Program-made: the position numbers and the translations under genes
Notes under the pieces: generated by a model
Seen by the model: the letters and a program-made list of their open reading frames with translations, nothing else
Databases searched by the model: none
Told to the model about the DNA's origin: nothing
NCBI GenBank assembly: GCA_041649495.1
Contig: JBAZMZ010000004.1
Coordinates: forward strand, 1-60,758
Reading direction: 5' to 3'
Length of the DNA stretch: 60,758 bases
DNA from: Minisyncoccota bacterium
GTDB taxonomy: Bacteria > Patescibacteriota > Minisyncoccia > Phycocordibacterales > XYD1-FULL-46-19
Shown here: piece after piece, positions 10,807-56,882 of the stretch
Layout of the letters: each line of letters opens with the position of its first letter
Numbering within the stretch: position 1 is the stretch's first letter

Positions 10807-10844
10807 GATAACACAATGCCAATCTACGAATTCAGGCGAATCTC

Positions 10845-11453
10845 CTAATCATTCGCATTGAGTAAGGCGATAATATCGCTATGGATTTTTTCGCGCGATT
10901 GCTCGCCGTCAACTTCCAAGAAGCGATACTTGGGATTATTACGATAATATTCCACCGCCGGCAAAACGTCACGGTCAAACCAATCAAGGCGTCGGTCAAT
11001 ATCGTCTGAAGCGTCATCGGCCCGACCGCGGGCCAATAATCTCTTTTTGGCTTCTTCACGCGAGACATCCACATAAACGACCGTGAGATTAACCCGATTA
11101 TAGAATTTCAAAAGTAAATCTAAAGTTTGCGCCTCAATTAACGAGCGCGGACAGCCATCACAAAAAATATGTTCGACACCCGTAAAATTCTCGATTAGCG
11201 AAGTGGTCCAAGTCCAAATGGCAAAATTATCTGGTAAACGCTCGCCGTTCTCCATCGAGGTCTTGAGCATTTTCGCCGTATAATTATCTTGTTGCGCAAA
11301 ATCTCGAAAACGCGCCCCGGTTTCAATCCGAAGCCAATTATGCTCATCATTAATCACCCCCTTCGTCTTGAGATACTCGGCCAAACGCTCAACCTGCGTC
11401 CCCTTACCGCACCCCGACCGCCCAATAAAAATATAAGTATGTAAATTTTCCAT
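10845..11453 (-). CDS. adk: Adenylate kinase-like nucleoside monophosphate kinase
   Basis: P-loop IFIGRSGCGKGTQ. It sits in the secY-adk-map position. Confidence 0.8.
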   Translation of the reverse strand: MENLHTYIFIGRSGCGKGTQVERLAEYLKTKGVINDEHNWLRIETGARFRDFAQQDNYTAKMLKTSMENGERLPDNFAIWTWTTSLIENFTGVEHIFCDGCPRSLIEAQTLDLLLKFYNRVNLTVVYVDVSREEAKKRLLARGRADDASDDIDRRLDWFDRDVLPAVEYYRNNPKYRFLEVDGEQSREKIHSDIIALLNAND

Positions 11454-11493
11454 ACCTTAAATTTTCGCACAAAATAAGGGAAAAAGCAAAAAT

Positions 11494-14115: not shown

Positions 14116-14538
14116 TTACAAATTTAACGACTTAACGATATTTTTAAGATATTTAGGCACATCGGTAAGACAAGATTCGATTGCGCCAAAAACTTTCTTA
14201 GCGTCAATTTCATCATATTCGTGAGCCAGCCGGTTTCTTAATCCCGCCGAATTAGCCATCGTCTCGGCAAATTTGGTTGGCAGATATTTCTTTTTTCCTA
14301 ATGTGATAAAAGAATTGTAAAAATCGGTCGGAATTTCATTTTCTTTTTCTGACAAAATGTGGTAATTAATATCAATCATTCGACCAATTATTCTTTCCAG
14401 ATATCTTTCCGCTAACGTTTCATATTCCGCTTTGCTCAAATAAGTTTTAAGCGAAAGTTTGCTTAGCGCTTTTAAACTTTTTAAGTCGCCGTTGATGGAG
14501 GTTATTTTCCGACTGATGAGTTCTTTATCAAGAGGCAT
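14116..14538 (-). CDS. hepT: HEPN-domain toxin (HepT/DUF86)
   Basis: RNRLAHEYD matches the Rx4-6H HEPN motif. It overlaps the upstream nucleotidyltransferase gene. Confidence 0.8.
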   Translation of the reverse strand: MPLDKELISRKITSINGDLKSLKALSKLSLKTYLSKAEYETLAERYLERIIGRMIDINYHILSEKENEIPTDFYNSFITLGKKKYLPTKFAETMANSAGLRNRLAHEYDEIDAKKVFGAIESCLTDVPKYLKNIVKSLNL

Positions 14539-14932
14539 AGGTGTTGATTATTTTTTTATTCAAATTATTTTCCATCGCAAAATAGGGCGCGTAGTCATTG
14601 TAAGCGTTAAAAGCGTAAAGCCGGAATTTCAGAAATTCTTCTCGACTGCCATAGAGTAAAATGGGATTTTTGCTAACCTGAAAAGACAGGAGCGGGTTGG
14701 CTCGATTTAAAACCGACAAATCGACATTTTTATTAAAAACCGAAGATAAGTCGTTGGTCAAACTAATTTGCTCGTCAAAAGAGACCCCGCTTGAACCCAA
14801 AACAGCGATGTCCAAATCACTATCTTTTCTTTGTCGTCCATTAGCAAAAGAACCAAAAATAATCAGCAGTTTTAATTGGAATTTTTGGGCAATTTGGGCA
14901 ACTTTCAGTTTGTGATCCTTGGTGATATCCAT
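14528..14932 (-). CDS. mntA: Minimal nucleotidyltransferase antitoxin (MntA)
   Basis: IFGSFANGRQRKDSDLDIAVL is the GSx10DxD motif. The ATG at 14932 (MDITKDHK) is preferred over the track start at 14977. Confidence 0.8.
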   Translation of the reverse strand: MDITKDHKLKVAQIAQKFQLKLLIIFGSFANGRQRKDSDLDIAVLGSSGVSFDEQISLTNDLSSVFNKNVDLSVLNRANPLLSFQVSKNPILLYGSREEFLKFRLYAFNAYNDYAPYFAMENNLNKKIINTYAS

Positions 14933-14976
14933 ACTGCCATTATACAAAGAACGGCAAGTTAAAACAATGATACACA

Positions 14977-15046
14977 CTCGAAGTCCGACTTCGGGCTTAC
15001 TTGAAGTCGGACTTCAAACCGCAAGGTTCAACCTTGCGATAGCAAG
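14977..15046. repeat. Repeat module A, copy 1 (two hairpins)
   Basis: GAAGTCCGACTTC gggcttactt GAAGTCGGACTTC, then CCGCAAGGTT c AACCTTGCG. It is near-identical to 46345-46414. Confidence 0.85.
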
Positions 15047-15158: not shown

Positions 15159-15422
15159 ATGGCTGGCGGAACACACGATCCAATATCGATTGGGGACAAT
15201 ACAGTTGATTTCCTGCTCCTCAAAATCCTAGCGAAGGATGGCTGGGCTCCAGAGTACTATGATTGGGCGGAGAAAGTGATTATCCTCAGGGCCACCAATA
15301 TGACCAAGTGGCAGAAAGATTTACTCTTTTGCGCAATCAAAGGTTGTGTCGACTTCTTTCACAGATGTGATAATGGTCGGTTCACCCAACTATCCTCCCG
15401 CCTTACGGCAAACCTGCCATGA
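15159..15422 (+). CDS. Hypothetical 87-aa protein (cassette gene inside repeat A/B copy 1)
   Basis: A strong SD (GAAAGGAGGGA) lies 5 nt before the ATG, and an intrinsic terminator overlaps its 3' end and follows the stop. It lies on the opposite strand to all its neighbours. Confidence 0.6.
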   Translation: MAGGTHDPISIGDNTVDFLLLKILAKDGWAPEYYDWAEKVIILRATNMTKWQKDLLFCAIKGCVDFFHRCDNGRFTQLSSRLTANLP

Positions 15423-15438
15423 GGCGGGTTTGTTTTTT
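15409..15438 (+). terminator. Rho-independent terminator of the 87-aa ORF
   Basis: CAAACCTGCC atga GGCGGGTTTG followed by TTTTTT. Its G-U pair is valid only on the plus strand. Confidence 0.75.
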
Positions 15439-15525
15439 GCAGTCAAGCGAGGCTTAGTAATTTTGAAAAGCCCCCTCCTTCGTCCGCCGTGGCGGACTAC
15501 GGACGGGCAAGTCGTGGAGCCTAGC

Positions 15526-15672
15526 AGTTAAGCGAGCCGGACCCGCTTAAAAAGCCTCTCGCAGAACGATTTGGTATGGTCTCCGAGGGTAACGAGGAGC
15601 AAATCGTTCGAGAGGAGCAAAAAATTTTTGCTGGAAAATTTTAAGGCAAGGTTTTTAAGCGGGATCGGCGAG
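15526..15672. repeat. Repeat module B, copy 1 (structured, about 145 nt)
   Basis: Aligns with 46415-46565. It has nested helices, two of which covary between the copies. Confidence 0.8.
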
Positions 15673-15675
15673 CGT

Positions 15676-16950
15676 CTAATACTCCCGCATTGAGATTTGC
15701 GCGTCAATTTGTTTAACGAATTCAATCGCCACCGAGACCACAATCAAGAGACTCGTGCCCCCGATAGCCAGCGAAGCGATGCCAGTCAGATTCTGAACGA
15801 TGATTGGCAAAATCGCCACAATACCTAAAAACAGCGCTCCGATCAGAGTCAAACGCGTTAAGATATTCGCGATATAAACCGAAGTTGAATTGCCGGGTCG
15901 CACACCAGGGATAAAAGCCCCATTTTTTTGTAAATTTTCGGAGATTGCTTGAGGATCGAAAGTAATGGCCGAATAGAAATAGGTAAAGACCACCACCAAG
16001 AAGAAATAGAGAAGGCCGTAAACAAATTGATTAGCGAGAAAATCAGACAAACCAGTCACCACCGCTTGCGTTGCCCCCCCAACGTAATTGGCAAGAAAAC
16101 TTAAAACCATCCGGGGGAAAAGCAGAATTGAAATAGCAAAGATAATAGGCATCACGCCAGCATTATTGACCCGAATCGGCAAATAAGTCGAGGTGCCACC
16201 ATACATCTTAGAGCCTCTTACTCGTTTAGCGTAAGTGACCGGAATTGGTCGCTCCGCTTCAGTGACGAAGACAATCGCGGCCAAGACCACTAGTCCCACC
16301 ACGAAAAAGGCTAGGTACATTGGGATTTGCGAGATGTCATAAGTAACAGCCAATTGCGAAAGGGTTGATGGCAAACGTGAGACAATACCAGCAAAGATCA
16401 GGAGTGAAACACCGTTACCAATACCAAACTCGGTAATTAATTCCCCAATCCACATTAAGAGAATCGAGCCAGCAGTAATAACCACAATATTCGTCAATTG
16501 ATCAAAAAAACTCATTGGTAATAACACGCCCTGCTTCTCCAACAGAATCAACAAACTTAGGCCTTGGACAATACAGAGCGGAACCGTTAACAAACGAGAA
16601 TATTGCGCCACCTTGCGTCGACCCGCTACCCCCTCTTCGTGATAAAGCTGTTTCAGGGCCGGGAAAATGAGAGTGAGAAGTTGAAAAATAATCGAAGAAG
16701 TAATAAACGGTCCAACTCCCAACATCATAATCGAAAGATTCGACAAACCACCACCCGAAAAGATATTGAGTAAACCGAAGAATTGATTATTACTTAAAAA
16801 CTTTTCGAGCTGGAGAATATTGACACCAGGAATCGGGATGGTCGCACCCAGACGAAAAAGCGCCAAGGCTCCCAAAACAAAGAGAATCCGATTGCGTAAG
16901 CCGCGATCTTCGAAGACTAATCTTAATTTATTATTGAACGCTTCTAACAT
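15676..16950 (-). CDS. secY: Preprotein translocase subunit SecY
   Basis: 424 aa, 10 TM segments, canonical SecY motifs. It follows rplO. Confidence 0.95.
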   Translation of the reverse strand: MLEAFNNKLRLVFEDRGLRNRILFVLGALALFRLGATIPIPGVNILQLEKFLSNNQFFGLLNIFSGGGLSNLSIMMLGVGPFITSSIIFQLLTLIFPALKQLYHEEGVAGRRKVAQYSRLLTVPLCIVQGLSLLILLEKQGVLLPMSFFDQLTNIVVITAGSILLMWIGELITEFGIGNGVSLLIFAGIVSRLPSTLSQLAVTYDISQIPMYLAFFVVGLVVLAAIVFVTEAERPIPVTYAKRVRGSKMYGGTSTYLPIRVNNAGVMPIIFAISILLFPRMVLSFLANYVGGATQAVVTGLSDFLANQFVYGLLYFFLVVVFTYFYSAITFDPQAISENLQKNGAFIPGVRPGNSTSVYIANILTRLTLIGALFLGIVAILPIIVQNLTGIASLAIGGTSLLIVVSVAIEFVKQIDAQISMREY

Positions 16951-17036
16951 AATTTTTAAATTACTCTAATTATTCTAATTTCTAATATTGGGAATTGGGA
17001 GTTTATTTAGGTTAATTAAGTTAATTAGAAATTAGG
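16951..17036. repeat. AT-rich spacer element, family 3 (copy 1 of 4)
   Basis: ...CTAATTATTCTAATTTCTAAT...TTATTTAGGTTAATTAAGTTAATTAGAAATTAGGTTAATT fills the whole rplO-secY spacer. Confidence 0.8.
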
Positions 17037-17471: not shown

Positions 17472-17509
17472 AAATTTAGTAGGTAGGAATTAGTATATAG
17501 TATATCGGG

Positions 17510-18088: not shown

Positions 18089-18147
18089 CTTATTTATTTT
18101 TATTTCTTTATTCGTAGCATTCGTATTATTCGTAGATTCGCATCGAT

Positions 18148-19100: not shown

Positions 19101-19138
19101 GATAATTTAGTATATAGGGATTAGTATGGAGTATATAG

Positions 19139-19800: not shown

Positions 19801-19860
19801 ATGAAAAACGCGATGCCAATCTGCGAATACCTGCGAATCTACAAATAAGAATTAATTGAG

Positions 19861-20545: not shown

Positions 20546-22060
20546 TTAACCTCCTACTACCACCGTCCGAGTAGCTTCAACATAACGATTAAAATTATCC
20601 GAGACCGTAAATTTAACCGTATAGGTACCAGCTTGAGAATAAGAATGTCGAAAAGTTTGCGACTGGCCAGTCGAACCTTGGGCACCAATTATCGCTGTTT
20701 CGCTAGCTTGCGTAGGAGACTCCCCCCAATTGATAGAGTAAGTTAAATAAGTTAAGTTAACTCCGGGCGAGGCTGTCGTGTTTATACCCCAAGAACCCCT
20801 TTCGCCCACCTTGAGAGAACCCGGGGCAAAGATGCGCTCAATTATAATACCGGGGGAAGCAACAATATTTATCGTCTTAATACAAATTCCACTTCCCCCC
20901 TCACCGCCAACCAAAAGGGTTACTGACGGGTTTCCAACAACATTCGCCGTGACCCGCTGTAATCCATCCGCGCTAAGTTTGTCCCCAGGCAACAACAAAG
21001 AATCTCTACCAGATGTATCCTGTTGCCAATATGCGTATGTAGCATTTTTGCTTGACCAGAAAAAATTAATGGGATCGCCTAAAGTGTATGATTCTTTATC
21101 AGAAGTAAGAACACAGGATGGTTGACCTAGATTATTTCCAATCGTCATATTAACCACATTGCTTTGCCCAATGGCACTGCTAACAAAAACCGAAAACGAG
21201 CCGGTGGGCCAATCTTTAGACTCTTGAATCACAATTTTAGTATTGGTTTTGGTAACCCAAGGCGACATTTGGGGGAGAACGAATTGTAATGGGCCAATTG
21301 TCCCAGAATTCACCTGACTTAACCTCTCCCCAGTAATAACAACTGTCCGATTACTGCTGTCAAAGGTGGCACCACTAATCCACGGGCCTTTCTCGAAACC
21401 ATTATCCACCACGACAGTCAGAGTAGCTTGAGCGGGAGCATAAGCACCAACACATTTATCAATTTCACCACTACATTTTGATCTATCATAGACAGTGAAT
21501 CTAATTGTATAAGTCCCCGGACGAGAATAAGTATGGGTGAAAGTACTAGTCTGGCTCACTTCGGTTTTTAGTCCGGCCACCACCGGAGTGGCAATGATAT
21601 CACCCCAATCAACTGAATATGTTAAATCGATACCGCTTGGCGCCGTGGCACTAATACTCCAAGTCCCAGTCTGATTAACAGCAAGCAAAGTCGGACCAGA
21701 AACAGAGTTGATGGAAATATTGTTGGTTGACCCACCACAAGGCAGACCTGTCGTTGAACTATAACCAGAAGTTGAAGTGCAACCGGCTGGTAGGATAATT
21801 TCTACTGGGGTTATGGCCGGACCCTGTAAAGCCACAATTTGCGCTTGCAAAGCTGCAATTTGGGCCAACAATTGTTGCATTAAACCCGACTGACAAAACG
21901 CCGGCTGGATAGGTTCTGAACCAACATTACCGTTCAGTTGCCAAACATGGTGCGACAAATCATAAATCTGACATTGTAATTCTTGAACTGTAGCTCCTTG
22001 CCCCACAAACGGCACAACCATTAAAGCGACGAGAAGAAACGAAACAATATATTTTTTCAT
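20546..22060 (-). CDS. Secreted protein with two PKD-like domains
   Basis: Has a signal peptide. It contains TFTHTYSRPGTYTIRFTVYD and QTFRHSYSQAGTYTVKFTVSD. Confidence 0.7.
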   Translation of the reverse strand: MKKYIVSFLLVALMVVPFVGQGATVQELQCQIYDLSHHVWQLNGNVGSEPIQPAFCQSGLMQQLLAQIAALQAQIVALQGPAITPVEIILPAGCTSTSGYSSTTGLPCGGSTNNISINSVSGPTLLAVNQTGTWSISATAPSGIDLTYSVDWGDIIATPVVAGLKTEVSQTSTFTHTYSRPGTYTIRFTVYDRSKCSGEIDKCVGAYAPAQATLTVVVDNGFEKGPWISGATFDSSNRTVVITGERLSQVNSGTIGPLQFVLPQMSPWVTKTNTKIVIQESKDWPTGSFSVFVSSAIGQSNVVNMTIGNNLGQPSCVLTSDKESYTLGDPINFFWSSKNATYAYWQQDTSGRDSLLLPGDKLSADGLQRVTANVVGNPSVTLLVGGEGGSGICIKTINIVASPGIIIERIFAPGSLKVGERGSWGINTTASPGVNLTYLTYSINWGESPTQASETAIIGAQGSTGQSQTFRHSYSQAGTYTVKFTVSDNFNRYVEATRTVVVGG

Positions 22061-22088: not shown

Positions 22089-22124
22089 GAGGTTAAACCT
22101 CGGGCTCACTAGAGGTTTAACCTC
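22089..22124. repeat. Conserved-loop hairpin family member
   Basis: GAGGTTAAACCTC gggctcacta GAGGTTTAACCTC. The 13-bp stem is perfect. Confidence 0.8.
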
Positions 22125-22213: not shown

Positions 22214-22450
22214 CTAATTTATGTGCCAAAGAGATTTGGGTAAACCAGATTGAGCAATAATACTTTTTAGTGTTTTGGGAGCAAAAGATAATTGATTACC
22301 GTGACGAGGAACACAAACTTGCCTTAGTTTGCCGGCAATTCGGCCACAATAGTAGTAATGGCTTCCTCGGATATGATTTACTTGAAAATTATGCTCTTTA
22401 AGCACCGCTTCGACGTCTCGAAATGTCCAATTGTTCAAACCCTTCGGCAT
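22214..22450 (-). CDS. hicA: HicA-family toxin (copy 1)
   Basis: 78 aa with ...HIRGSHYYY...VPRHGNQ...TLKSIIAQSGL. Confidence 0.8.
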   Translation of the reverse strand: MPKGLNNWTFRDVEAVLKEHNFQVNHIRGSHYYYCGRIAGKLRQVCVPRHGNQLSFAPKTLKSIIAQSGLPKSLWHIN

Positions 22451-23346: not shown

Positions 23347-23448
23347 GGCGTTAAAAATTATTCTAATTATTTTAATTATTCTAATTTCTAATTGGGAATT
23401 TCGAATTTATTTAGGTTAATTAAGTTAATTAGAAATTAGGTTAATTTT
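23347..23448. repeat. AT-rich spacer element, family 3 (copy 2)
   Basis: Fills the rplX-rplE spacer. It shares the CTAATTTCTAATT ... AATTAGAAATTAG arms. Confidence 0.8.
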
Positions 23449-23754: not shown

Positions 23755-23857
23755 ATTTCTTAAATTATTCTAATTGCTCTAATTATTCTAATTTCTAACA
23801 TTGGAAATTTGGGGTTTGTTTAGGTTAATTAAGTTAATTAGAAATTAGGTTAATTTT
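23755..23857. repeat. AT-rich spacer element, family 3 (copy 3)
   Basis: Fills the rplN-rplX spacer. Confidence 0.8.
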
Positions 23858-24758: not shown

Positions 24759-24807
24759 ATTGTTGTTTTATTCGTAGATTCGCAGGTATTCGTAGATTAG
24801 TATCGCA

Positions 24808-26274: not shown

Positions 26275-26406
26275 ATCTTGAAAATTGTTCTAATTGATCT
26301 AATTATTCTAATTTCTAAATAATTTCTAATGACATAATTTCTAAATTTGGGATTTGGGATTTATTTAGGTTAATTAGGTTAATTAAAAATTAGGTTAATT
26401 CTACTA
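26275..26406. repeat. AT-rich spacer element, family 3 (copy 4, longest)
   Basis: Fills the rpsS-rplV spacer. Confidence 0.8.
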
Positions 26407-26754: not shown

Positions 26755-26812
26755 ACACTATTTTAACCGCCCATTGAAGCAGACTCCCTGTCCGCCCTGA
26801 TGAGCTGGAGTT

Positions 26813-26840
26813 ATCATAGCAAAATAAGGGGAGATGTCAA
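26813..26840 (-). promoter_or_regulatory. Near-consensus promoter upstream of rpsS
   Basis: The minus strand reads TTGACA (26840-26835), a 16-nt spacer, then TATGAT (26818-26813). Confidence 0.5.
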
Positions 26841-26883
26841 ACAAAACTAATAACTAATTTTTGGAGTGTCAAACATCCGATGT

Positions 26884-27120
26884 TTAACACTCTCGGCGAA
26901 GTTTATCGTAATCCTCAACCGTTAGGTCGATCTGATTTAAAATTAGCCGAATTAAAGAGGTGTCGAGCGTTTTTCGAGAATGTTTGGGAACAATCGTATT
27001 TTTGCCGGTTTGTCCGCAATGCCAAAAGTAGTGGCTACCTTTGACTCGGATAAGCGAAAAACCCAACCTCTTGAGAATTTTCATCATCTTGGTTGATGAA
27101 ACTGGAACAAGCTTGGGCAT
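26884..27120 (-). CDS. hicA: HicA-family toxin (copy 2)
   Basis: MPKLVPVSSTKMMKILKRLGFSLIRVKGSHYFW...IVPKHSRK. Confidence 0.85.
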   Translation of the reverse strand: MPKLVPVSSTKMMKILKRLGFSLIRVKGSHYFWHCGQTGKNTIVPKHSRKTLDTSLIRLILNQIDLTVEDYDKLRREC

Positions 27121-27137
27121 TTTTAACCTTGTTTACC

Positions 27138-27371
27138 TTATTGGCAGGCTAATTCAAAAGTCTTAACCCGAGCGAGACTTCGAGGCATTACCTTTTGACC
27201 AAGAGATTTCTTTGCCTCCAGATACAAGCCAATCGCTTCCTCTAAATTGCGTTCCAAAACATTTAAACTCTTGGCTTGAGTATGACAACCAGGGAGAGCG
27301 GGAACGCTACCGATATAATAACCGTCTTCCCCTTTCTCAATAATCGCCATAAGTTTAGGATTCTTTTTCAT
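27138..27371 (-). CDS. hicB: HicB-family antitoxin (copy 2)
   Basis: MAIIEKGEDGYYIGSVPALPGCHTQAKSLNVLERNLEEAIGLYLE. The ATG at 27371 is preferred. Confidence 0.8.
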   Translation of the reverse strand: MKKNPKLMAIIEKGEDGYYIGSVPALPGCHTQAKSLNVLERNLEEAIGLYLEAKKSLGQKVMPRSLARVKTFELACQ

Positions 27372-27455
27372 TATCTTAATGGTAACGCAAACATAATCAA
27401 AAATCAAACAGCTAAGCGAGGCCTCGTTCAGTTAAACAACGCAGGCTAAGCGCCT

Positions 27456-28295: not shown

Positions 28296-28347
28296 ATTTT
28301 TATTTTTTTATTCGTAGATTCGCATGTATTCGTAAATTGGCATCGCA

Positions 28348-35441: not shown

Positions 35442-35484
35442 ATTTTTGTTTATTCCCTATATACTACATACTAATCCCTAAATA

Positions 35485-35898: not shown

Positions 35899-35966
35899 AA
35901 AATAAACCCAACCCGTAAACAAGCGGGACAAGCACTACTTTAATATAAATGGTTTAAAAAAGCAAC

Positions 35967-36212
35967 CTATTTGGTATAAAAATGCTTATCTAATTCTTCC
36001 TCAGGAATATAATTCGAAGCTTGCTCGTAAATTGCCTTGATTGTACCCTTGGTCAATTCTTTATGCGCCGGAACGGTTAAAACTTGATGATGGCCATTTA
36101 TTGTCCTTCTTAACTTAATATGGCTACCTCTTTGCGAGTAAAAGTTGAAACTAAAAACAGCGAGAATTTTAACAATATCCTTGTTTGATAAAACCCTTAG
36201 CTTATTAGGCAT
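35967..36212 (-). CDS. hicA: HicA-family toxin (copy 3)
   Basis: MPNKLRVLSNKDIVKILAVFSFNFYSQRGSHIKL...TVPAHKEL. Confidence 0.75.
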   Translation of the reverse strand: MPNKLRVLSNKDIVKILAVFSFNFYSQRGSHIKLRRTINGHHQVLTVPAHKELTKGTIKAIYEQASNYIPEEELDKHFYTK

Positions 36213-36432
36213 GACAAACCGTCGGTAATTCAAAACTCATTAAGAGCGAGGGCTGACGGGCAAAACCAAAATCAGCGAGATCTTCTCCCTCGAGAGTCAG
36301 GTCAACCGCCTCCTTAATATTTGTCATCAATTCGTCCCAATTTTTAGCTTGCGTTACAATCGGCAAATCCATACCTTTGGCCGTATAATAACCGTCTTCT
36401 TGGATAATTCTAAATTGAGCAATATTTTTCAT
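36205..36432 (-). CDS. hicB: HicB/UPF0150-like antitoxin (copy 3)
   Basis: FRIIQEDGYYTAKGMDLPIVTQAKNWDELMTNIKEAVDL. It overlaps hicA by 8 nt. Confidence 0.7.
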   Translation of the reverse strand: MKNIAQFRIIQEDGYYTAKGMDLPIVTQAKNWDELMTNIKEAVDLTLEGEDLADFGFARQPSLLMSFELPTVCHA

Positions 36433-45088: not shown

Positions 45089-45130
45089 ATTTGGGTATTA
45101 TAAACCAAAAACAAAAGAAACAGAAAACTT

Positions 45131-45164
45131 GTTAACATTTCTCCCAATTGGAAATTATGTTAAC
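45131..45164. promoter_or_regulatory. 34-nt palindrome upstream of the PaaX-like gene (operator candidate)
   Basis: GTTAACATTTCTCCCAATTGGAAATTATGTTAAC. It is related to 45800-45833. Confidence 0.5.
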
Positions 45165-45184: not shown

Positions 45185-45703
45185 ATGAGCCTTGGCGACG
45201 AAATCATCTTTTTTCTCTCTAACCATCCTGGAAATTATCGAGATCTTAGATCGCGGATGTTGGGGGATCTCTTCCTTGAAGATAAACTCCAGGCCAAGAT
45301 AGCTGAGAGAAAGAAAATGGCAAACCAAGAAAGAGTCTTGCGCGTCACCTTGTCTAGATTGAAGAAAAACGGCTTAATTATAAATAATGAAGAGAGTTTG
45401 TGGAAACTAACAATTGAAGGGGTTAAAAAATTAAGAGATTATCACTGGCGAAAACATAGCCACCCAGCCCAAATTCCCAAGTCTAAAAGAAAAATGATTA
45501 TCGCCTTTGATATCCCTAAAAACAAGGAAAGGGCTCGACACTGGTTGAGAACAGAGTTAGTTGGTTTAGGTTTTAAATTAATGCAAAAAAGTGTCTGGTT
45601 GGGGCCGGCACCGCTACCGAAAGAATTTATTGATCAAACTAAGACCTTGGATATCTTGCCCCACTTAAAATTTTTTGAAGTCAAAGAAACTGACATTATT
45701 TAA
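45185..45703 (+). CDS. PaaX-like regulator: winged-HTH N-terminus plus Cas2-like ferredoxin-fold C-terminus
   Basis: RVTLSRLKKNGLI (wHTH) and MIIAFDIPKNKERARHWLRTELVGLGFKLMQKSVWLGP (PaaX/Cas2-like). A GGAGAGG SD is present. Confidence 0.6.
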   Translation: MSLGDEIIFFLSNHPGNYRDLRSRMLGDLFLEDKLQAKIAERKKMANQERVLRVTLSRLKKNGLIINNEESLWKLTIEGVKKLRDYHWRKHSHPAQIPKSKRKMIIAFDIPKNKERARHWLRTELVGLGFKLMQKSVWLGPAPLPKEFIDQTKTLDILPHLKFFEVKETDII

Positions 45704-45799: not shown

Positions 45800-45833
45800 G
45801 TTAACAAAATTTCCAATTGGAAATTTTGTTAAC
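45800..45833. repeat. Perfect 34-nt palindrome downstream of the PaaX-like gene
   Basis: GTTAACAAAATTTCCAATTGGAAATTTTGTTAAC. It is flanked by a pyrimidine tract on the left and a purine tract on the right. Confidence 0.7.
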
Positions 45834-45922
45834 AACAAGAAAGGAAGAAAAAGGGGGGATAGGTAATGTCAGTTTTAATTAATATTTTTTGAAAATCAAA
45901 AGACCGCCCTAACCCGGATAGG

Positions 45923-46258
45923 TCAGAGCGGTCGGCCATTCTCGTCACGGGGCCAATTGGGGCAGTCTTCCTTCGCGAGAGCGCAATTCAACTTATTGGC
46001 GTGTTGCCAGAATGTAGACCAACATAGTGGGCAATTAAGCATCATGATCCCAATAATATCCTTGCGGGTACTTGAGCGGGGAATAACCGAGGAGAACCCG
46101 ACCAGATAATGACACCAAGAAAGGCCGTCACTTCTGGCCTTCTCCAAAAGGTGACAATCGCATCTGGGGCAAGTTTTGTAACCATTATAAGGAAGTTGAG
46201 GATCCCACTTGACCCCCCATTCGGGAGGCATCACAAATTCTTCTTCTGGCTCGAGCAT
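45923..46258 (-). CDS. Hypothetical Cys-rich 111-aa protein (CPRC...CPLC), G+C-rich
   Basis: An AAGGAGGC SD lies 5 nt before the ATG. It has two CxxC pairs. Confidence 0.55.
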   Translation of the reverse strand: MLEPEEEFVMPPEWGVKWDPQLPYNGYKTCPRCDCHLLEKARSDGLSWCHYLVGFSSVIPRSSTRKDIIGIMMLNCPLCWSTFWQHANKLNCALAKEDCPNWPRDENGRPL

Positions 46259-46344: not shown

Positions 46345-46414
46345 CTCGAAGTCCAACTTCGGGCTCACTTGAAGTTGGACTTCAAACCGCAAGGTTCAAC
46401 CTTGCGGTAGCAAC
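46345..46414. repeat. Repeat module A, copy 2
   Basis: GAAGTCCAACTTC gggctcactt GAAGTTGGACTTC, then CCGCAAGGTT c AACCTTGCGG. Confidence 0.85.
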
Positions 46415-46565
46415 CAAGCGAGACTTGTTTCGTTTAAAAAGCCTCTCGCAGACCGAGTTGGCACGGTCTCCGAGCACAGCGAGGAGCAACTCGGTCGAGA
46501 GGAGCAAAAAATTTTCGCTGGAAAATTTTAAGGCGAGGTTTTTAAAACGAAATCAAGTCGAGCGA
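46415..46565. repeat. Repeat module B, copy 2
   Basis: Aligns with 15526-15672. Here it directly abuts module A. Confidence 0.8.
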
Positions 46566-47990
46566 TTATTTTTCCCGCCAAGAGATAATTTGATATTGAT
46601 CAGAAGTAAGGGGAAAAGATGGAGGCGGGCCGTAAAGTAAGCCACCATCATAGGTCAAATTACGCAATTCATAGCCCGTGTCATCAACATAAGCAAAACC
46701 ATAACGTTGGTTTGTCGCAATCATGCCGAACAAGGTTAAAGAATGACGTTTATACTCATCGCCACAATCTTTCCCATAGTAAAAACGTCCCACCCGACCA
46801 TTTTTCGCCACCAAAGCCGCGTCAATTTGTAAATCGTCCTCACTGTCTAACCCAACATTAAAATTATTTTGAGCAATCAAACCAATCACATCCTGACCGT
46901 CATAATTGGTATATTTCAAATCATTATTCACCGTAATACTAGTATTGGTATTAGTACTCTCCGGGAAACGGCCTGAAGCAATTGTTAGGCGCGCCGTATT
47001 AATTTGCCCCGAAACCCAAACATTGTCCTCGACAAAAATAATACCATTAACGGGGAAAGGATAATTGGCAATAAAAGATTCTTTTTTGATGCTCCAAGTT
47101 CCCCAATTAGTTTGACTACTAGAACAACCGCGAGGCGGAGAAGAGACGGAGGTGACTTTATACAAATCGAAAGTATCATTAGTTTTGAGAATCAGATGAT
47201 AACCTTGATCGCCAGAATTAGAAAGATAGCGACCATCAGCGGTATTGGCCTCGGTCTTGAGATTAGCTAAATCAGCCGTGAGGCCGGTAAAATCAACGGC
47301 GGGCACCGGGAATTGTCGCCCAGCCATAAAAACATCCGAGCAACTAGGTGGAGCGATTGGCGGGAACGGATCAGTTGGCGAGTCGTGAGTGTGCACACCA
47401 TACTCGAGATAATGGTCATCGTAGTCAGGATCATCATAACTGGCCTGCGCGCTCGTGATTAAATTATGGGCCACACCGTCAAACCGAACACCATCGTTGG
47501 AGTGAATCGGACCAAAAACTTCGGTTCCTTCACCAAACCGCATCTTAGCATTAGCCCCTACCGCGTATTTAGCCAGCGACGGAATGGCGAGTTTTGATTC
47601 CACTATTCGCTTAGCGTTCGAACCATCAAAAACTTCACCGGTCGAAGTGATGGCCACCAGAGTCGAACCAATCAAGGGCTCCGCGATAACCAAAGAATAT
47701 TGACCAAGAGTATTCCCATCTTTATCTTGATAAGGATGAACATAGGGTCCGGTCGAACTCGAACCTTGGCCATCATGAAAATCCGTTGGCGCATGGGCTA
47801 AATGCCAACGATAATACTCCACTCCCGCTTCGGCAATTTGAAAAGCTTGCTCGCGCGAAGCCAAATAACGCGATAATTTTAAACTTGTTCCGGCCCAACC
47901 AATCAAACCACCAATAATAATAACACCGGCCGCGCTAAAGACCAAAACTTGAACGAGTAAGTACCCACCATTTTTGTTTTTTTCTGTCAT
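46566..47990 (-). CDS. PilX-N-like pilus-associated protein (474 aa)
   Basis: Has an N-terminal TM segment, then SREQAFQIAEAGVEYYRWHL (PilX N-terminal pattern). It sits in the pilus cluster. Confidence 0.6.
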   Translation of the reverse strand: MTEKNKNGGYLLVQVLVFSAAGVIIIGGLIGWAGTSLKLSRYLASREQAFQIAEAGVEYYRWHLAHAPTDFHDGQGSSSTGPYVHPYQDKDGNTLGQYSLVIAEPLIGSTLVAITSTGEVFDGSNAKRIVESKLAIPSLAKYAVGANAKMRFGEGTEVFGPIHSNDGVRFDGVAHNLITSAQASYDDPDYDDHYLEYGVHTHDSPTDPFPPIAPPSCSDVFMAGRQFPVPAVDFTGLTADLANLKTEANTADGRYLSNSGDQGYHLILKTNDTFDLYKVTSVSSPPRGCSSSQTNWGTWSIKKESFIANYPFPVNGIIFVEDNVWVSGQINTARLTIASGRFPESTNTNTSITVNNDLKYTNYDGQDVIGLIAQNNFNVGLDSEDDLQIDAALVAKNGRVGRFYYGKDCGDEYKRHSLTLFGMIATNQRYGFAYVDDTGYELRNLTYDGGLLYGPPPSFPLTSDQYQIISWREK

Positions 47991-48014: not shown

Positions 48015-48067
48015 CCCCCCTCACCCGCCAGACCTTGGGCTCACTTAAGGTCTGGCGGGGACGGGGG
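48015..48067. repeat. Conserved-loop hairpin family member (extended stem)
   Basis: CCGCCAGACCTT gggctcactt AAGGTCTGGCGG, with outer CCCCC/GGGGG pairing. It starts right after the pilin stop codon. Confidence 0.85.
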
Positions 48068-48715: not shown

Positions 48716-50493
48716 TGTGGATTTAAAGTAATTTCTAAAATTTGCCAGTCTTGATTAACCGCGACCGGAGCCGATGATTCTTGGTAACCTGTCTTATTCG
48801 CGCTCACCAAATAATCACCCGTCGTGAGACCATCAAAATAAATTTGGCCAAAAGGCAAACAGGCCGAACTATAAGTCACCGAAATGTCAGATAGATTGGG
48901 CGTCACGAGCGGATCGGCCGTCGATAAGAAAACTCGATAGCGCAAATAACGCGCGGGTGAATTGACCGAGCTAATCGTCGCACCAGAGGTTGAATAATAA
49001 CTCGCGCTCGTACCATCAGGGCCCAACCACGCCCAAGTCGTGGTCGCCGGATCATTACCGGTCGCTAATTGGAAACGAATACTCGTCTCCCCCGTCGAAC
49101 TAGCTTGATCAACCGGTCGCCAATTAAGATTATAAAAAGTGGTGGTGGTCGCGCCCGAATCAAAAACGCCGGAGACCAAATAGCCGGCCGGCTGATAATT
49201 ACCTAAAACCTCAACCAATTTAAGTTCCCCGATCGGCGCATGAGTTTCAATGTTGCCATCAGTTTCTAAACCGCCCGCCGACCAATCCGTTTGGGTAAAA
49301 TAGCCCCGATTCGTTACTAAGGTTTGGTCAACACCATTGCCCGATAAATTGACTTCAACATTAGACAAAGGCAAACCCGAAGCCCCATCCTTAACCGCCA
49401 CCAATAAACCCTTACCCGATTTGGGTTTAAGCACCAACTTAACAGTACTGTCGGCCCCGGGTGGCACCAGCACTGATTGAAGAGGAAAAGAGCCAGCGAT
49501 CGCCCAAACCGAATCGTCAGCGATTAATTGATAAGTGTCCCAATCTAAATTAGGAAGCCATAAATCGCCACTCGCGGAGATAGTCTGGCTTTCGTCATAG
49601 CGCAAAATTTCTGGATCCGCACTTAATAATCTTTCGCCTTGGAGTTGGAGAGTAAAAGGTCCAGCCGGTTGGCAATAATTATCAACTGCCTCTAGTGCCA
49701 AATTACTCAAACGATCAATGATTAAACTTAGGGAGGTTAATTGACCCGCCAAAACCGTGGCATCGGGGCTAGTGGGGTTGGTGAGACCAGCTTCACCAAG
49801 AGCATAAGTGCGAGCCGATGAATAGCCGGCCTTACTAACCTCGACCCGATAAGCAAATTCGCCCGGTGGCGTATCGACCAATTGAAAAATCTCCTCATTA
49901 TTAGTGGTATCTTGAACCACCATCGTCGTTGTCGCTTTAATATTTGTGACCTTAACATTGGCATCAGGTACCGCTTGGCCATTAGCATCAAAAACTTTGA
50001 CAAAGAGCGCGCCGTTGCCCGAACTGTTTTCTAAATTTTTCGGACTAATCATGGCGATTAAGGTTAAGGGTTGAAAATAGCGACAAACCCTACTCCCACA
50101 CGAAACAGTCACTTCAACTAATTTATAATCAGCCGGCGTTAAATCGTTGGGCTCCCCACTGATCGTCCCATCAAACGAATCGTCAAGATTGCGCACTGTC
50201 GTCGTAATCTTAAAAACCATCCCCGAAGTAGTGGCCAAGCGTTCATAGGGCAAAGATCCCGCTGGCCAGCCACCCAAAATACCAACGCTCGAATAAGGTA
50301 AATTGCGCGCAATCTCGATTTGCTCATTGGCCAAACTAATCGCCCCCGCCTTGGCCTTAGCACTAAGAGTAAGACTGCTCACCCCCAAAAACGCTTGATA
50401 AATACCGAGAGCCAAAACGGCAAAAATCGCCGAGGCCACCAAAACCTCAACCAAAGTAAAACCATTAGTCTTAGTCGTTATATTCGTAGGCAT
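48712..50493 (-). CDS. Giant prepilin-type protein (593 aa)
   Basis: MPTNITTKTNG FTLVEVLVASAIFAVL, followed by a large beta-rich extracellular region. Confidence 0.85.
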   Translation of the reverse strand: MPTNITTKTNGFTLVEVLVASAIFAVLALGIYQAFLGVSSLTLSAKAKAGAISLANEQIEIARNLPYSSVGILGGWPAGSLPYERLATTSGMVFKITTTVRNLDDSFDGTISGEPNDLTPADYKLVEVTVSCGSRVCRYFQPLTLIAMISPKNLENSSGNGALFVKVFDANGQAVPDANVKVTNIKATTTMVVQDTTNNEEIFQLVDTPPGEFAYRVEVSKAGYSSARTYALGEAGLTNPTSPDATVLAGQLTSLSLIIDRLSNLALEAVDNYCQPAGPFTLQLQGERLLSADPEILRYDESQTISASGDLWLPNLDWDTYQLIADDSVWAIAGSFPLQSVLVPPGADSTVKLVLKPKSGKGLLVAVKDGASGLPLSNVEVNLSGNGVDQTLVTNRGYFTQTDWSAGGLETDGNIETHAPIGELKLVEVLGNYQPAGYLVSGVFDSGATTTTFYNLNWRPVDQASSTGETSIRFQLATGNDPATTTWAWLGPDGTSASYYSTSGATISSVNSPARYLRYRVFLSTADPLVTPNLSDISVTYSSACLPFGQIYFDGLTTGDYLVSANKTGYQESSAPVAVNQDWQILEITLNPQ

Positions 50494-50511
50494 TCGTAAA
50501 TTAGCATGGCA

Positions 50512-51749
50512 TCACTTGATCGCATTAGAGAGCGAATACATTGGACCAATCATCGACACCGCAAATAAGCCGACGGCCAAGCCAATAATAATCATCAAGA
50601 CGGGTTCAATCACCGTCGACAAATTTTTGGTCACCTGATCAACTTCATCTTCAAAAAAAACTGCGCCTTTGAGCAAGAGTTCCGGCAATTTACCTGTCTC
50701 TTCGCCAACTGACGACATCTCACTAGCAAAAATCGGGAAAAGATTTTGATGAGCCGAGAAGATAACTGACAAAGAAATACCTTTTTGGACCTTATCGAGA
50801 GCTTCAATCATTACTTGTTGATAATAATAATTTTGCACCACCTTCTTGGTGATGGCCATCGTCTTGGTCAGACTAACGCCCGCCGAGACAGAGAGAAAGT
50901 GGTTCGCATAATCACGGCCGAATTGACCTGACGCGTTAATTTATTAACAAAAGGAATATGCAAAAGCAACCAAGGCATCATCTTCTTACCCCGCCCCGTT
51001 TTCGGCCACCAAAGCAAAAAGATAATAAGTAAAACAAGGCCAGCCAAAACGACGAAGATATTATTAACTAAGAAATCAGACAAACCAATCACCAAACGCG
51101 TCGACAATGGCAAGGGCACATTAAGTTCGCGAAAAGTGGCCGACAAGGTCGAGATCAGAAAAATCATCATCAAAATACCGATCGCGACGATGGCCACGAC
51201 AATCACCGAGGGATAAATCAGAGCGCCAATAATTTTGCGACGCAAGGCATAACTTTTTTCTAATTGCTCACCGATTAATTTGAGGGCTTCGGGCAATTTA
51301 CCCGTCTCTTCGGCCGCGGCGACCATCGCCGTAAAAACCTCGGGGAAAATTTTTGGCCACTTAGCCAAAGCGCCACTCAAACTCTCACCCTTGGCAATGA
51401 GAGCCTCTACTTCGGTTAAAACTTTTTTGAAATATTTATGGCTCGTTTGCCGCGCCATCACCGACAAGGCTCGCGACAAGGGTAAACCAGCGCTAATCAT
51501 CGCGCTCAAATTATTAGCAAAAATAATTTTGTCTTTCATCTTTACCCTGTGGAGTATAATTCGCCAAGAGCGAATTACCGCAAAGCGGTACTCCACAGGG
51601 TGAACCCTATTATTTTTTACTTCTTCCACTACTAAAGCAATCAAACCTTCGGCACGCAATTCGCGGGCCAAACTAAAACGGTCAACGGATTCTCGAGTCC
51701 CCGAAATTTCTTCGCCATTAGCCCTTTTCGCCCTAAAATTGAAAATCAT
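50512..51749 (-). pseudogene. pilC: PilC/GspF-family platform protein split by a frame shift (ORFs 50868-51749 and 50512-50859)
   Basis: The first GspF domain (FANNLSAMISAGLPLSRAL...AAEETGKLPEAL) is in one frame. The second (FLSVSAGVSLTKTMAI...VGEETGKLPELL) is in the adjacent frame, which is open from about 50935. Confidence 0.75.
51545..51600. repeat. 56-nt nested palindrome lying in-frame inside pilC
   Basis: CCCTGTGGAGTA ... TACTCCACAGGG, with inner AATTCGC/GCGAATT and ACCGC/GCGGT stems. Confidence 0.8.
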
Positions 51750-51767: not shown

Positions 51768-51803
51768 CCCGCCAGACCTTGGGCTCACTTAAGGTCTGGC
51801 GGG
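51768..51803. repeat. Conserved-loop hairpin family member
   Basis: CCCGCCAGACCTT gggctcactt AAGGTCTGGCGGG, lying between pilB and pilC. Confidence 0.85.
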
Positions 51804-56717: not shown

Positions 56718-56882
56718 TAAATTAGTAGTCTGTTGTGTCCCAACGGGCTTTTTTTAAAAGCTAACAAATTAAGCCGATGCGAATTTACGAATAATACGAA
56801 TGCTACGAATAGGGAAGAAACATTTTTGAACCCATTTGTATCATTCGCATGAAGATTCGTATCATTGGTATCGCACCTAATT

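Follow-up and report, generated by a model that had tools for sequence, protein, structure and literature searches.

A stop-codon-abutting family of structured extragenic repeats in Paceibacteria

The window analysed here, a 60,758-nt segment of a Paceibacteria (Candidate Phyla Radiation) chromosome, carries two copies of a repeated element of about 150 nt, module B, each placed directly behind the stop codon of a minus-strand gene. Module B is a new family, absent from Rfam 15, whose broad class is that of structured extragenic repeats; within this class it is unusual in being a three-way junction with an invariant core, in its few copies, its single orientation and its fusion to TAR stops. 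The reading that we favour, although only tentatively, is of an ERIC-, SPRITE- or REPIN-like extragenic repeat that is co-transcribed as a 3′ UTR, and whose A5-hairpin-U5 core may act as a terminator or stabiliser.

Genomic setting and distribution of module B

Bacteria of the Candidate Phyla Radiation have very small, tightly packed genomes, and their non-coding elements are almost uncharacterised. Nearly all genes of the window lie on the minus strand, and they include tmRNA, smpB, the S10-spc ribosomal protein operon with secY, adk, map, comEC and recJ, as well as a type IV pilus cluster. The closest SecY proteins (84–89% identity) come from Paceibacterota MAGs, and landfill and groundwater metagenomes contain the same stretch. 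Several other families of intergenic repeats and toxin-antitoxin cassettes are found at gene boundaries of this genome, and no transposase or recombinase was found among the scanned ORFs of the 60-kb window.

The original prediction that module B is present twice was confirmed, the two window copies being 89% identical (15544-15658 and 46431-46545). Exact-word scans located the element in two Paceibacterota MAGs (3 copies each), one Vogelbacteria MAG (1 copy) and 15 JGI metagenome contigs, giving 17 distinct copies from Paceibacterota/Vogelbacteria MAGs and metagenomes after removal of duplicates. Further near-identical cores were seen in lake, groundwater, landfill, sludge and wastewater runs, and the 5′ and 3′ core blocks are essentially invariant also in eight further metagenome or metatranscriptome runs. 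By exact-word scans the copy number is low, at 2–3 per genome (3, 3 and 1 in the MAGs and 2 in the 60-kb window). A covariance model and nhmmer retrieved no further or more divergent module B from the whole window and 208 kb of related loci, and a scan of IMG/VR viral contigs found no copy. The tmRNA (281-669) is the sole match to Rfam 15 in the window at gathering thresholds; module B had no match at these thresholds and none overlapping it at E ≤ 10, where chance-level miRNA matches fell on the module A hairpins and other weak matches on the flanks. No described Patescibacteria or Parcubacteria repeat or RNA motif of this kind was found in the literature searched.

Anatomy of the unit

Read on the plus strand, the unit runs CARYY-AAGCGAG / P1 5′ arm (about 11 nt) / TTAAAAA-G-CCTCTCG-CAG / P4, and continues after P4 with CGAGAGG-AGC-AAAAAATTTTYGCTGGAAAATTTT-AAGGCRAGG-TTTTTAA / P1 3′ arm / CGAGCG-N(1-3)-YTA. 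Read in the sense of the upstream gene, it consists of the stop codon (typically TAG-G), CGCUCG, an 11-bp closing helix P1, the three-way junction and CUCGCUU-RR-YUG; within the junction lie an A5 tract and two hairpins, P5 (AU, weak) and P3-P4 (long, G+C-based), the latter followed by C-U5. The outer flanks AAGCGAG...CGAGCG and the stop codon are thus conserved parts of the unit, a point missed in the original prediction. Coordinates are collected in Table 1.

Table 1. Coordinates of module B, module A and related features in the window
Feature	Position	Strand	Remarks
Module B copy 2, full unit	46412..46568	-	match of covariance model R1; in gene sense begins with the pilus-associated gene's stop TAA (46566-46568) and has CTCGCTTGGTTG at its end
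Module B copy 1, full unit	15526..15678	-	in gene sense begins with the secY stop TAG (15676-15678)
Conserved left flank AAGCGAG	46416..46422		copy 1: 15530-15536
CGAGCG	46559-46564		closes P1 with AAGCGAG; copy 1: 15669-15674
P1 5′ arm ACTTGTTTCGT	46423..46433		partner 46546-46558; copy 1: 15537-15546 with 15659-15668
5′ core block TTAAAAAGCCTCTCGCAGA	46434..46452		19 nt, nearly invariant
P4 long hairpin	46452..46495		covarying lower stem, ACCGAGTT/AACTCGGT in copy 2; four other types elsewhere
3′ core block	46496..46545		about 50-51 nt; invariant in 17/17 except two positions, in copy 1 only
Module A copy 2	46345..46413	-	two hairpins, directly downstream (gene sense) of module B
Module A copy 2, H1	46348-46383		13-bp stem, loop GGGCTCACTT
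Module A copy 2, H2	46385-46409
Module A copy 1	14977..15045	-	94% identity to copy 2; abuts start of MNT/HepT pair
Mini element	27409..27455	-	directly after L2 stop codon
Solitary flank-like motif CAGTCAAGCGAGG	15440..15452	+	75 nt from module B copy 1; read from sequence

The 5′ core block contains the P2 5′ arm (an A-tract), a bulged G, the P3 5′ arm CCTCTCG and a CAG joiner. It is identical in 12 of the 17 copies, the exceptions being single changes or insertions in L002, L010, L012 and L022 and an A/C change at the last-but-one base of the w1 type. The order within the 3′ core block is the P3 3′ arm CGAGAGG, AGC, the P5 hairpin (arms AAAAUUUU/AAAAUUUU, loop CGCUGG), AAGGCGAGG and the P2 3′ arm TTTTTAA (a U-tract). 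Between the two blocks, P4 carries a conserved 7-nt bulge, RGYAYGG, an apical stem CUCC-GA-G/C-GA-GGAG and a variable loop that accepts hairpin insertions of 16–42 nt (L008, L013); in two other copies (L012, L014) the 20-nt palindrome CCTGCCTGYCGGCAGRCAGG is inserted at the junction, on either side. P1 is hypervariable in sequence, with at least five unrelated sequence types, and its pairing is retained. On the plus strand it is closed by G-C and C-G pairs around a tandem G.A/A.G. In L009 this basal tandem is swapped for Watson–Crick pairs, and in L005 the closing pair changes from G-C to A-U, indicating that the basal tandem G.A positions behave as paired.

Fold and covariation

Both window copies fold far more stably than shuffled sequence on either strand, with z-scores of −4.6 to −6.4. 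The four helices quoted in the original prediction were all found in the sequence as written: CCTCTCG/CGAGAGG and TTAAAAA(G)CC/GGTTTTTAA are identical in both copies, whereas AACGATTT/AAATCGTT of copy 1 and ACCGAGTT/AACTCGGT of copy 2 differ in sequence and keep their pairing, as does the outer helix (CCGGACCCGC/GCGGGATCGG in copy 1 versus ACTTGTTTCGT/ACGAAATCAAGT in copy 2). With 17 distinct copies the compensatory changes were upheld statistically. The consensus fold is a three-way junction of 53 pairs, 18 of which show changes on both sides, and 97.2% of the cells are paired. None of 500 shuffles came up to the real alignment in pairing or covariation, and a control in which partners were shifted by 1–3 columns left only 33–58% paired. 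This pattern points to a fold selected in a single strand, be it RNA or ssDNA, and the original argument to that effect, drawn from structure being kept while sequence changes, is strengthened by the larger sample. The covariation support comes entirely from P1 and P4; P2, P3 and P5 never vary, so covariation neither backs nor tests them. About 70 nt of the core are invariant in the 17 copies, an invariance that is partly built in, since the scans demanded 20–26 exact bases of the 3′ block.

Position against stop codons

In every intact copy a gene-sense ORF ends 1–3 nt before CGCTCG, and the orientation is always the same. The two window copies lie 1 nt from the secY TAG and the pilus-gene TAA, in agreement with the original statement that both adjoin a stop codon. 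Ten unrelated upstream families of housekeeping genes are represented, encoding or comprising secY, a pilus-associated protein, ftsW/rodA, rpsR (S18), rpoD, rplL (L7/L12), efp (EF-P), smc, an M23/LysM peptidase and RNase R, and at five of the ten loci the element was seen in more than one species (two to four). The abutting stops are 11 TAG, 4 TAA and 0 TGA, against a background of 59–69% TAA, 19–28% TAG and 12–13% TGA among the genes of the window and related loci; in a sixteenth copy (L010) the ORF runs into the element and stops at an internal TAA. The commonest unit end, CGAGCGCCTA (TAGGCGCTCG in gene sense), recurs together with the stop behind at least five different genes, so that the stop codon looks like part of the unit.

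The proteins themselves are not altered by this arrangement at secY. SecY is 423–424 aa long in 120 of 120 homologues among the matches listed, and its C-terminus reads ISMREY immediately before the stop both with and without the element; thus, the element lies exactly at the native stop and the protein is not truncated. An element-encoded C-terminal tail (SMREY before the stop in SecY, SWREK in the pilus protein) was rejected for the same reason, and the other eight upstream gene families have no common C-terminus. In-frame read-through as a conserved feature was ruled out as well, since the offset between stop and element varies by 1–3 nt and no reading frame is conserved. No covariation was found between the stop codon and the right flank.

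Spacer always follows on the far side of the element. In many cases the next gene is convergent and ends 16–30 nt away; co-directional next genes lie 27 to several hundred nt from the element. The closest is tpiA in L005, which starts 27 nt beyond the element, and the gap holds TTGATT-16 nt-TATAAT, a match to the sigma-70 consensus judged by eye and unscored. The right flank CTTGAYTG as a general −35 box was rejected, a good −10 at the right spacing being seen (by eye) only in L005.

The close attachment to stops raises a further reading, that of a stop-codon-anchored class under purifying selection across Paceibacteria, being either a termination-coupled cis-regulatory RNA or a mobile element that homes to TAR stops; we consider it rather improbable. 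Its termination-coupled version would have the terminating ribosome open the closing helix of the unit (consensus TAG-G-CGCUCG). In its mobile version the element would home to the TAR stops of essential genes, regenerate the stop and supply a terminator. If the link to the stop were mechanistic, it would amount to a new principle, either in the targeting of mobile DNA or in the coupling of translation termination to mRNA 3′-end formation.

Conservation and turnover at secY

Orthologous copies of module B are 79–92% identical, with indels and variable helices counted. By comparison, the last 300 nt of the upstream gene are 63–78% identical, and the downstream DNA is unalignable at about 45%; over the whole secY gene, the window and L009 share 77% DNA identity. 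At secY, module B occurs only in the window, L009 and L024. It is absent from four genomes (L026-L028, L030) whose SecY is 76–88% identical, and in three of these four the gap between secY and adk is 38–43 nt. The L025 locus retains a decayed trace only. In the closest relative (L029, SecY 89%) only the flanks are left, as TAA-T-CGCTCG-GCCA-TTCGCTTGACTG; a search for other flank-only sites gave mostly noise, and L029 alone was convincing. Elsewhere, L015 is a 5′-truncated copy and L022 a decayed one.

A rival reading is that of a dedicated functional RNA, acting in cis in the 3′ UTR or released from it, with the invariant junction, bulge and P5 loop binding a specific protein or RNA. As is typical of structured RNAs, the roughly 70 invariant nucleotides lie in joiners, bulge and loop, helices vary by compensation and loops tolerate insertions. 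Conservation of orthologous copies exceeds that of the coding DNA beside them. Orientation and distance from the stop are constant across 10 gene families, CGAG recurs at equivalent positions of the structure, six times in all, and a ribosome at the stop codon would need to open the base of P1. However, no Rfam family, known ribozymes included, matched even at E ≤ 10, equally close relatives do without the element at secY, and truncated and decayed copies occur. P2, P3 and P5 lack covariation support because they never vary, and the upstream genes have no common pathway. We therefore hold a dedicated RNA to be possible but unlikely. Candidates of this kind would be a regulator coupled to the ribosome, to an RNase or to termination, or else a small ribozyme by which the mRNA end is defined, with termination not the main role.

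The same turnover can be read in the opposite sense, as the trace of a purely selfish miniature mobile element (MITE/REPIN/PATE-like) that has no host function. The uniform core would then come from recent spread, re-insertion at TAR stops and gene conversion, and the compensatory changes from palindrome correction or from selection that keeps an ssDNA hairpin competent for transposition. The mixture of presence, absence and a flank-only allele that secY shows in genomes with 86–89% identical SecY agrees with this, as do the nested insertions, truncation and decay, the unit end CGAGCGCCTA that includes the stop, the TAG-biased and TGA-free stops against a TAA-rich background, and the other intergenic repeats and toxin-antitoxin cassettes at gene boundaries of the same genome. 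All three copies of LW4_71 share the same P4 type and loop, which suggests gene conversion among copies within one genome, and the same compensatory pattern is found in REPINs (PMC3116915).

The ends of the element do not look like those of a MITE. There are no terminal inverted repeats, since AAGCGAG...CGAGCG is not an inverted repeat and P1, which lies inside it, is the least conserved part. No matching target-site duplication was found either: the left side is TAR (the stop) and the right side TRR (TAA/TAG/TGA/TGG), and the two agree in 5 of 13 copies. The inner core begins and ends with TTAA, which is equally part of P2. Among the features of IS200/IS605-type PATEs, single orientation and lack of duplication would fit, but there are no separate end hairpins and no constant 4–5-nt target beyond TAR. 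A variable P1 around an invariant core is hard to square with the entire unit having moved recently. Five loci hold the element in two to four species each, all 10 loci have it in one orientation, the copy number is low and no transposase was seen among the scanned ORFs of the window. A selfish element without host function is therefore unlikely in our view. Taken together, the turnover, nested insertions, truncations, stop-inclusive end and neighbouring repeats nevertheless point to spread at the DNA level, and in the reading that we favour the family would have spread and been lost as DNA in the manner of ERIC, SPRITE, Correia or REPIN elements. The low copy number, unlike that of most REP and MITE families, speaks against the repeat reading.

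Neighbouring cargo and the attC comparison

Lineage-specific DNA adjoins both window copies: the secY copy is followed by MNT/HepT and a C1 peptidase, and at the pilus locus a 111-aa ORF and a PaaX/Cas2-like gene precede tpiA. Module B might be a folded ssDNA recombination site, attC-like in principle as in the original prediction, or a landing pad at which accessory cassettes, often toxin-antitoxin pairs, are inserted behind housekeeping genes. Cargo lies between secY and adk in all four genomes with module B or remnant flanks (MNT/HepT and a C1 peptidase in the window, MazF-like in L024, other genes in L025 and L029), and secY is adjacent to adk in three of the four genomes without any trace. 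Moreover, the mini element borders a HicB/HicA insertion after L2, and the tandem G.A motifs on the plus strand are compatible with DNA. Against these stand several loci at which module B has no cargo (the pilus gene of L005, and ftsW/rodA in three genomes), the variation of the cargo with no second element copy at its far end, and L026, which has cargo and no trace of the element. The attC parallel itself fails. A both-strand pattern search of the 17 copies showed that R″/R′ boxes (RYYYAAC ... GTTRRRY) are missing from most copies and never correctly placed, and this, together with the scan of window ORFs, agrees with the earlier remark that no integrase was seen and the R-box was unconvincing. 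Copies are single and dispersed behind core housekeeping genes, with no cassette array. In our reading, operon ends that are permissive accumulate both cargo and element; a recombination site we consider very unlikely.

Strand, transcription and terminator-like layout

Since nothing stands between the stop codon and module B, the gene-sense strand must be transcribed with the gene as its 3′ UTR. In wastewater metatranscriptome contigs the core is joined to gene 3′ ends, although these contigs are undirected and DNA carry-over is possible; with the same proviso of DNA carry-over, some contigs from RNA runs extend 50–90 nt beyond both ends of the element.

The strand on which the fold works is less clear-cut, and an alternative to weigh is a small RNA gene on the plus strand with transcription of its own, which would converge with the upstream gene and be antisense to its end. 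The plus strand folds 3–11 kcal/mol better in 17 of 17 copies. It alone has a conserved tandem G.A motif, [CGAG]2, in two places (basal in P1 and apical in P4), which turns into U.C mismatches in gene sense, as well as the common P1 U.G, and GGA/GAGG motifs are present on it. No conserved sequence was found among the copies upstream on the plus strand, however, which makes a dedicated promoter there unlikely. Leaving aside one inherited U.G, the G.U and A.C mismatches in P1 are balanced at 8 versus 8, as would be expected under a DNA-level or two-strand constraint. The only plus-strand ORF (MVSEQSEEQIVREEQKIFAGKF) is broken in half of the copies, coding for 8 aa in ACCAAATT-type copies and having no ATG in copy 2. 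A plus-strand small RNA gene is thus highly improbable. A coding function was rejected in general, as none is conserved and the ORFs over the two window copies lie on different strands; in gene sense, the AUG in the bulge is changed to AUA in two copies.

Returning to the co-transcribed repeat that we favour, the gene-sense sequence of its inner part is UUAAAAA-CCUCGCCUU-[AU hairpin]-GCU-[CCUCUCG...long hairpin...CGAGAGG]-C-UUUUU-AA. This A-tract/hairpin/U-tract layout, like that of a bidirectional terminator, had escaped the original prediction. It is observed at the ends of transcription units, often before convergent genes. We infer that the inner A5-hairpin-U5 part may act as a factor-independent terminator, which the symmetric A and U tracts would make usable from both directions. 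The 3′ end would then fall in the U5 tract near 46434-46440 and 15547-15553, with gene-sense RNA ending in GAGAGGCUUUUU. On read-through transcripts the closed P1 and three-way junction could serve as a block to 3′ exonucleases or as a processing platform. A simple consensus terminator scanner did not call module B, because its stem and loop exceed the limits of that scanner.

Several features speak against termination as the function. The U5 following C is a modest U-tract, and P1, the best-supported helix, lies outside the terminator, so that its 3′ arm would be missing from an RNA ending at U5. The 70 invariant nucleotides, with a weak AU hairpin and joiners, are far above the need of a terminator, and RNA contigs that run past both ends do not fit efficient termination. 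For these reasons, namely the modest U-tract, the selection on P1, the 70 invariant nucleotides and the contigs past the ends, termination cannot be the whole story. The [CGAG]2 tandem G.A motifs and the better fold favour the antisense strand over a gene-sense reading. A terminator function alone also leaves the abutment at 1–3 nt and the TAG bias unexplained.

Comparison with known elements

Many bacterial intergenic repeats at gene 3′ ends are co-transcribed and influence mRNA stability (PMC3184786), and SPRITE is a terminator-like repeat among them (PMC3184786). The dispersed intergenic repeat of 100–150 bp described there resembles module B in that its predicted fold is like a terminator and it is transcribed with its neighbours (PMC3184786). 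Module B differs from it in its three-way junction, its extra closing helix, its few copies per genome, its abutment to stops at 1–3 nt, its fixed orientation and its occurrence in a different phylum, and there is no sequence similarity between the two. ERIC/IRU (127 bp) and Correia/CREE of Neisseria are likewise co-transcribed at the 3′ ends of genes, as long imperfect palindromes, and ERICs influence mRNA stability (PMC3184786).

In contrast to module B, which has a single orientation, no terminal inverted repeats at its ends and no demonstrable duplication, ERIC and Correia elements bear terminal inverted repeats, duplicate a TA target and lie in either orientation. Their sequence is highly conserved from species to species, and internal insertions or deletions are present in some copies. 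REP/BIME sequences and REPINs (RAYT transposase) are extragenic palindromes as well, forming hairpins in ssDNA or mRNA. REPINs have conserved ends with a GTAG/CGTC tag, a variable middle and tens to hundreds of copies, whereas module B has an invariant middle, a variable outer helix and a low copy number; inverted conserved ends around a variable spacer were accordingly not found, the pattern being the opposite. According to a 2015 report by Liang, Rudd and Deutscher, E. coli REPs within about 15 nt of the stop reportedly stall ribosomes and lower expression. Compensatory changes are common in REPIN hairpins, and REPINs are vertically persistent (PMC3116915).

Integron attC sites (for example, the VCR of Vibrio) are imperfect palindromes of about 120–150 nt that, like module B, follow a stop codon directly and conserve structure over sequence in part. 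An attC acts as folded ssDNA; module B differs by having no R″/R′ boxes, no array and no integrase nearby. With bidirectional intrinsic terminators the inner part of module B shares the A-tract, G+C hairpin and U-tract. Compared with plain terminators, it has three additions (conserved joiners, an AU hairpin that is invariant and, past the U-tract, an outer helix that covaries), and it is a repeated unit with a conserved sequence.

Module B thus survives in small genomes, outconserves its essential neighbours, covaries and is fused to stops, which makes it a candidate structured-RNA or repeat family. It offers a handle on how transcripts are ended and separated in invaded housekeeping operons, and it causes assembly breaks in Paceibacteria MAGs. 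Even if it should be a repeated terminator only, its annotation would be useful, marking operon ends and insertion hot spots in such MAGs.

Module A and the mini element

The original prediction had described a composite of modules A and B found twice, both directly 3′ of a minus-strand gene. The two are contiguous at 46345-46565, but at the other locus 480 nt separate them, and module A is found next to the start of MNT/HepT and not 3′ of secY. Of the two perfect hairpins attributed to module A, the second is perfect only in copy 2 and has one mismatch in copy 1. H1 of module A represents a separate family, with covarying 13-bp stems, the conserved loop GGGCTCACTN and five members in the window, and this family also stands alone in lake metagenomes. 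Modules A and B are independent repeat families.

The mini element has flanks like those of module B (TAA-A-GGCGCT... ...CCTCGCTTAGCTG) around a small core, TTGTTTAACTGAAC. At the same position 3′ of L2, two relatives have ordinary A-tract/hairpin/U-tract terminators instead. The mini core TTGTTTAACTGAAC also adjoins module B itself in three copies (L002, L006 and L024).

Cargo at the junctions of housekeeping operons

Housekeeping operons of the window are interrupted by toxin-antitoxin cassettes, and at the L2|S19 and secY|adk junctions the cargo found in relatives differs from that of the window. In all secY|adk cases, the insertion point lies between the secY stop codon and a conserved leader (TTTTTGC...TTATTTTGTGCGAAAATT...ATG), which also precedes adk in the related genomes L024 and L026-L030. 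This leader is present in duplicate in L024, flanking a MazF-like gene on both sides. The C1 protease encoded here, for which EF-hand matches are weak, is lineage-specific cargo. The 87-aa ORF is without a Pfam match; its ribosome-binding site is good and its terminator canonical.

At the pilus|tpiA junction, an inverted repeat (GTTAACA...TTCCAATTGGAA...TGTTAAC) flanks the PaaX/Cas2-like gene region, and neither this gene nor the 111-aa ORF is found at the orthologous junction of the related locus L005.

Cargo, hairpins and repeats in the window and related loci
Feature	Position	Strand	Location
HicB/HicA	26755-27370		after L2
HicA, lone	22215-22450		before gene at 20546-22060
HicB-like/HicA pair	35960-36430		between M50 peptidase gene and rpsL
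MNT/HepT	14116-14977		after secY
adk leader, 40 nt	11454-11493
Papain-family (C1) cysteine protease, 865 aa	11494-14091		between secY and adk
87-aa ORF	15159-15440	+	convergent with secY
Terminator of 87-aa ORF	15397-15440	+
PaaX-middle/Cas2-like plus Mrr_N protein	45185-45703	+	between module A and tpiA
111-aa ORF, unannotatable	45923-46258	-	between module A and tpiA
Inverted repeat	45129-45164, 45800-45835
Hairpin family	14980-15015, 22089-22124, 46348-46383, 48024-48059, 51768-51803	as genes
Hairpin family, outside window	L004:259-294
Module B with palindrome	L012:2821-2994, L014:3010-3185
AT-rich repeat, first family	16951-17036, 23347-23448, 23755-23857, 26275-26406
Second family	18089-18147, 24760-24807, 28296-28347, 50464-50514
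Second family, inverted	10811-10849, 19807-19851, 56769-56816
Third family	17472-17509, 19101-19138, 35442-35484

Hairpins and palindromes

The first hairpin of module A belongs to a family with a stem of exactly 13 bp, whose sequence varies among members while the pairing is kept; the 10-nt loop is conserved (GGGCTCACTN; in gene sense, AGUGAGCCC). Every member is intergenic and oriented as the genes, with a stop codon 8-11 nt before the hairpin in two of them. The 46348 version also occurs in lake and wastewater runs with different flanks, its stem being identical in two run contigs and carrying 2-4 differences in four others.

Two copies of module B, the structured repeat abutting stop codons, contain an inserted 20-nt perfect palindrome, CCTGCCTGYCGGCAGRCAGG, at mirror-image positions of the module's junction in L012 versus L014. 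It seems to be a mini-palindrome that inserts into other palindromes.

Repeats filling intercistronic spacers

Three AT-rich repeat families occupy entire spacers, from stop codon to start codon, in ribosomal-protein operons, and a Shine-Dalgarno motif is absent from these repeat-filled spacers of the window. The same junctions measure merely 3-30 nt in the related genomes L025-L030.
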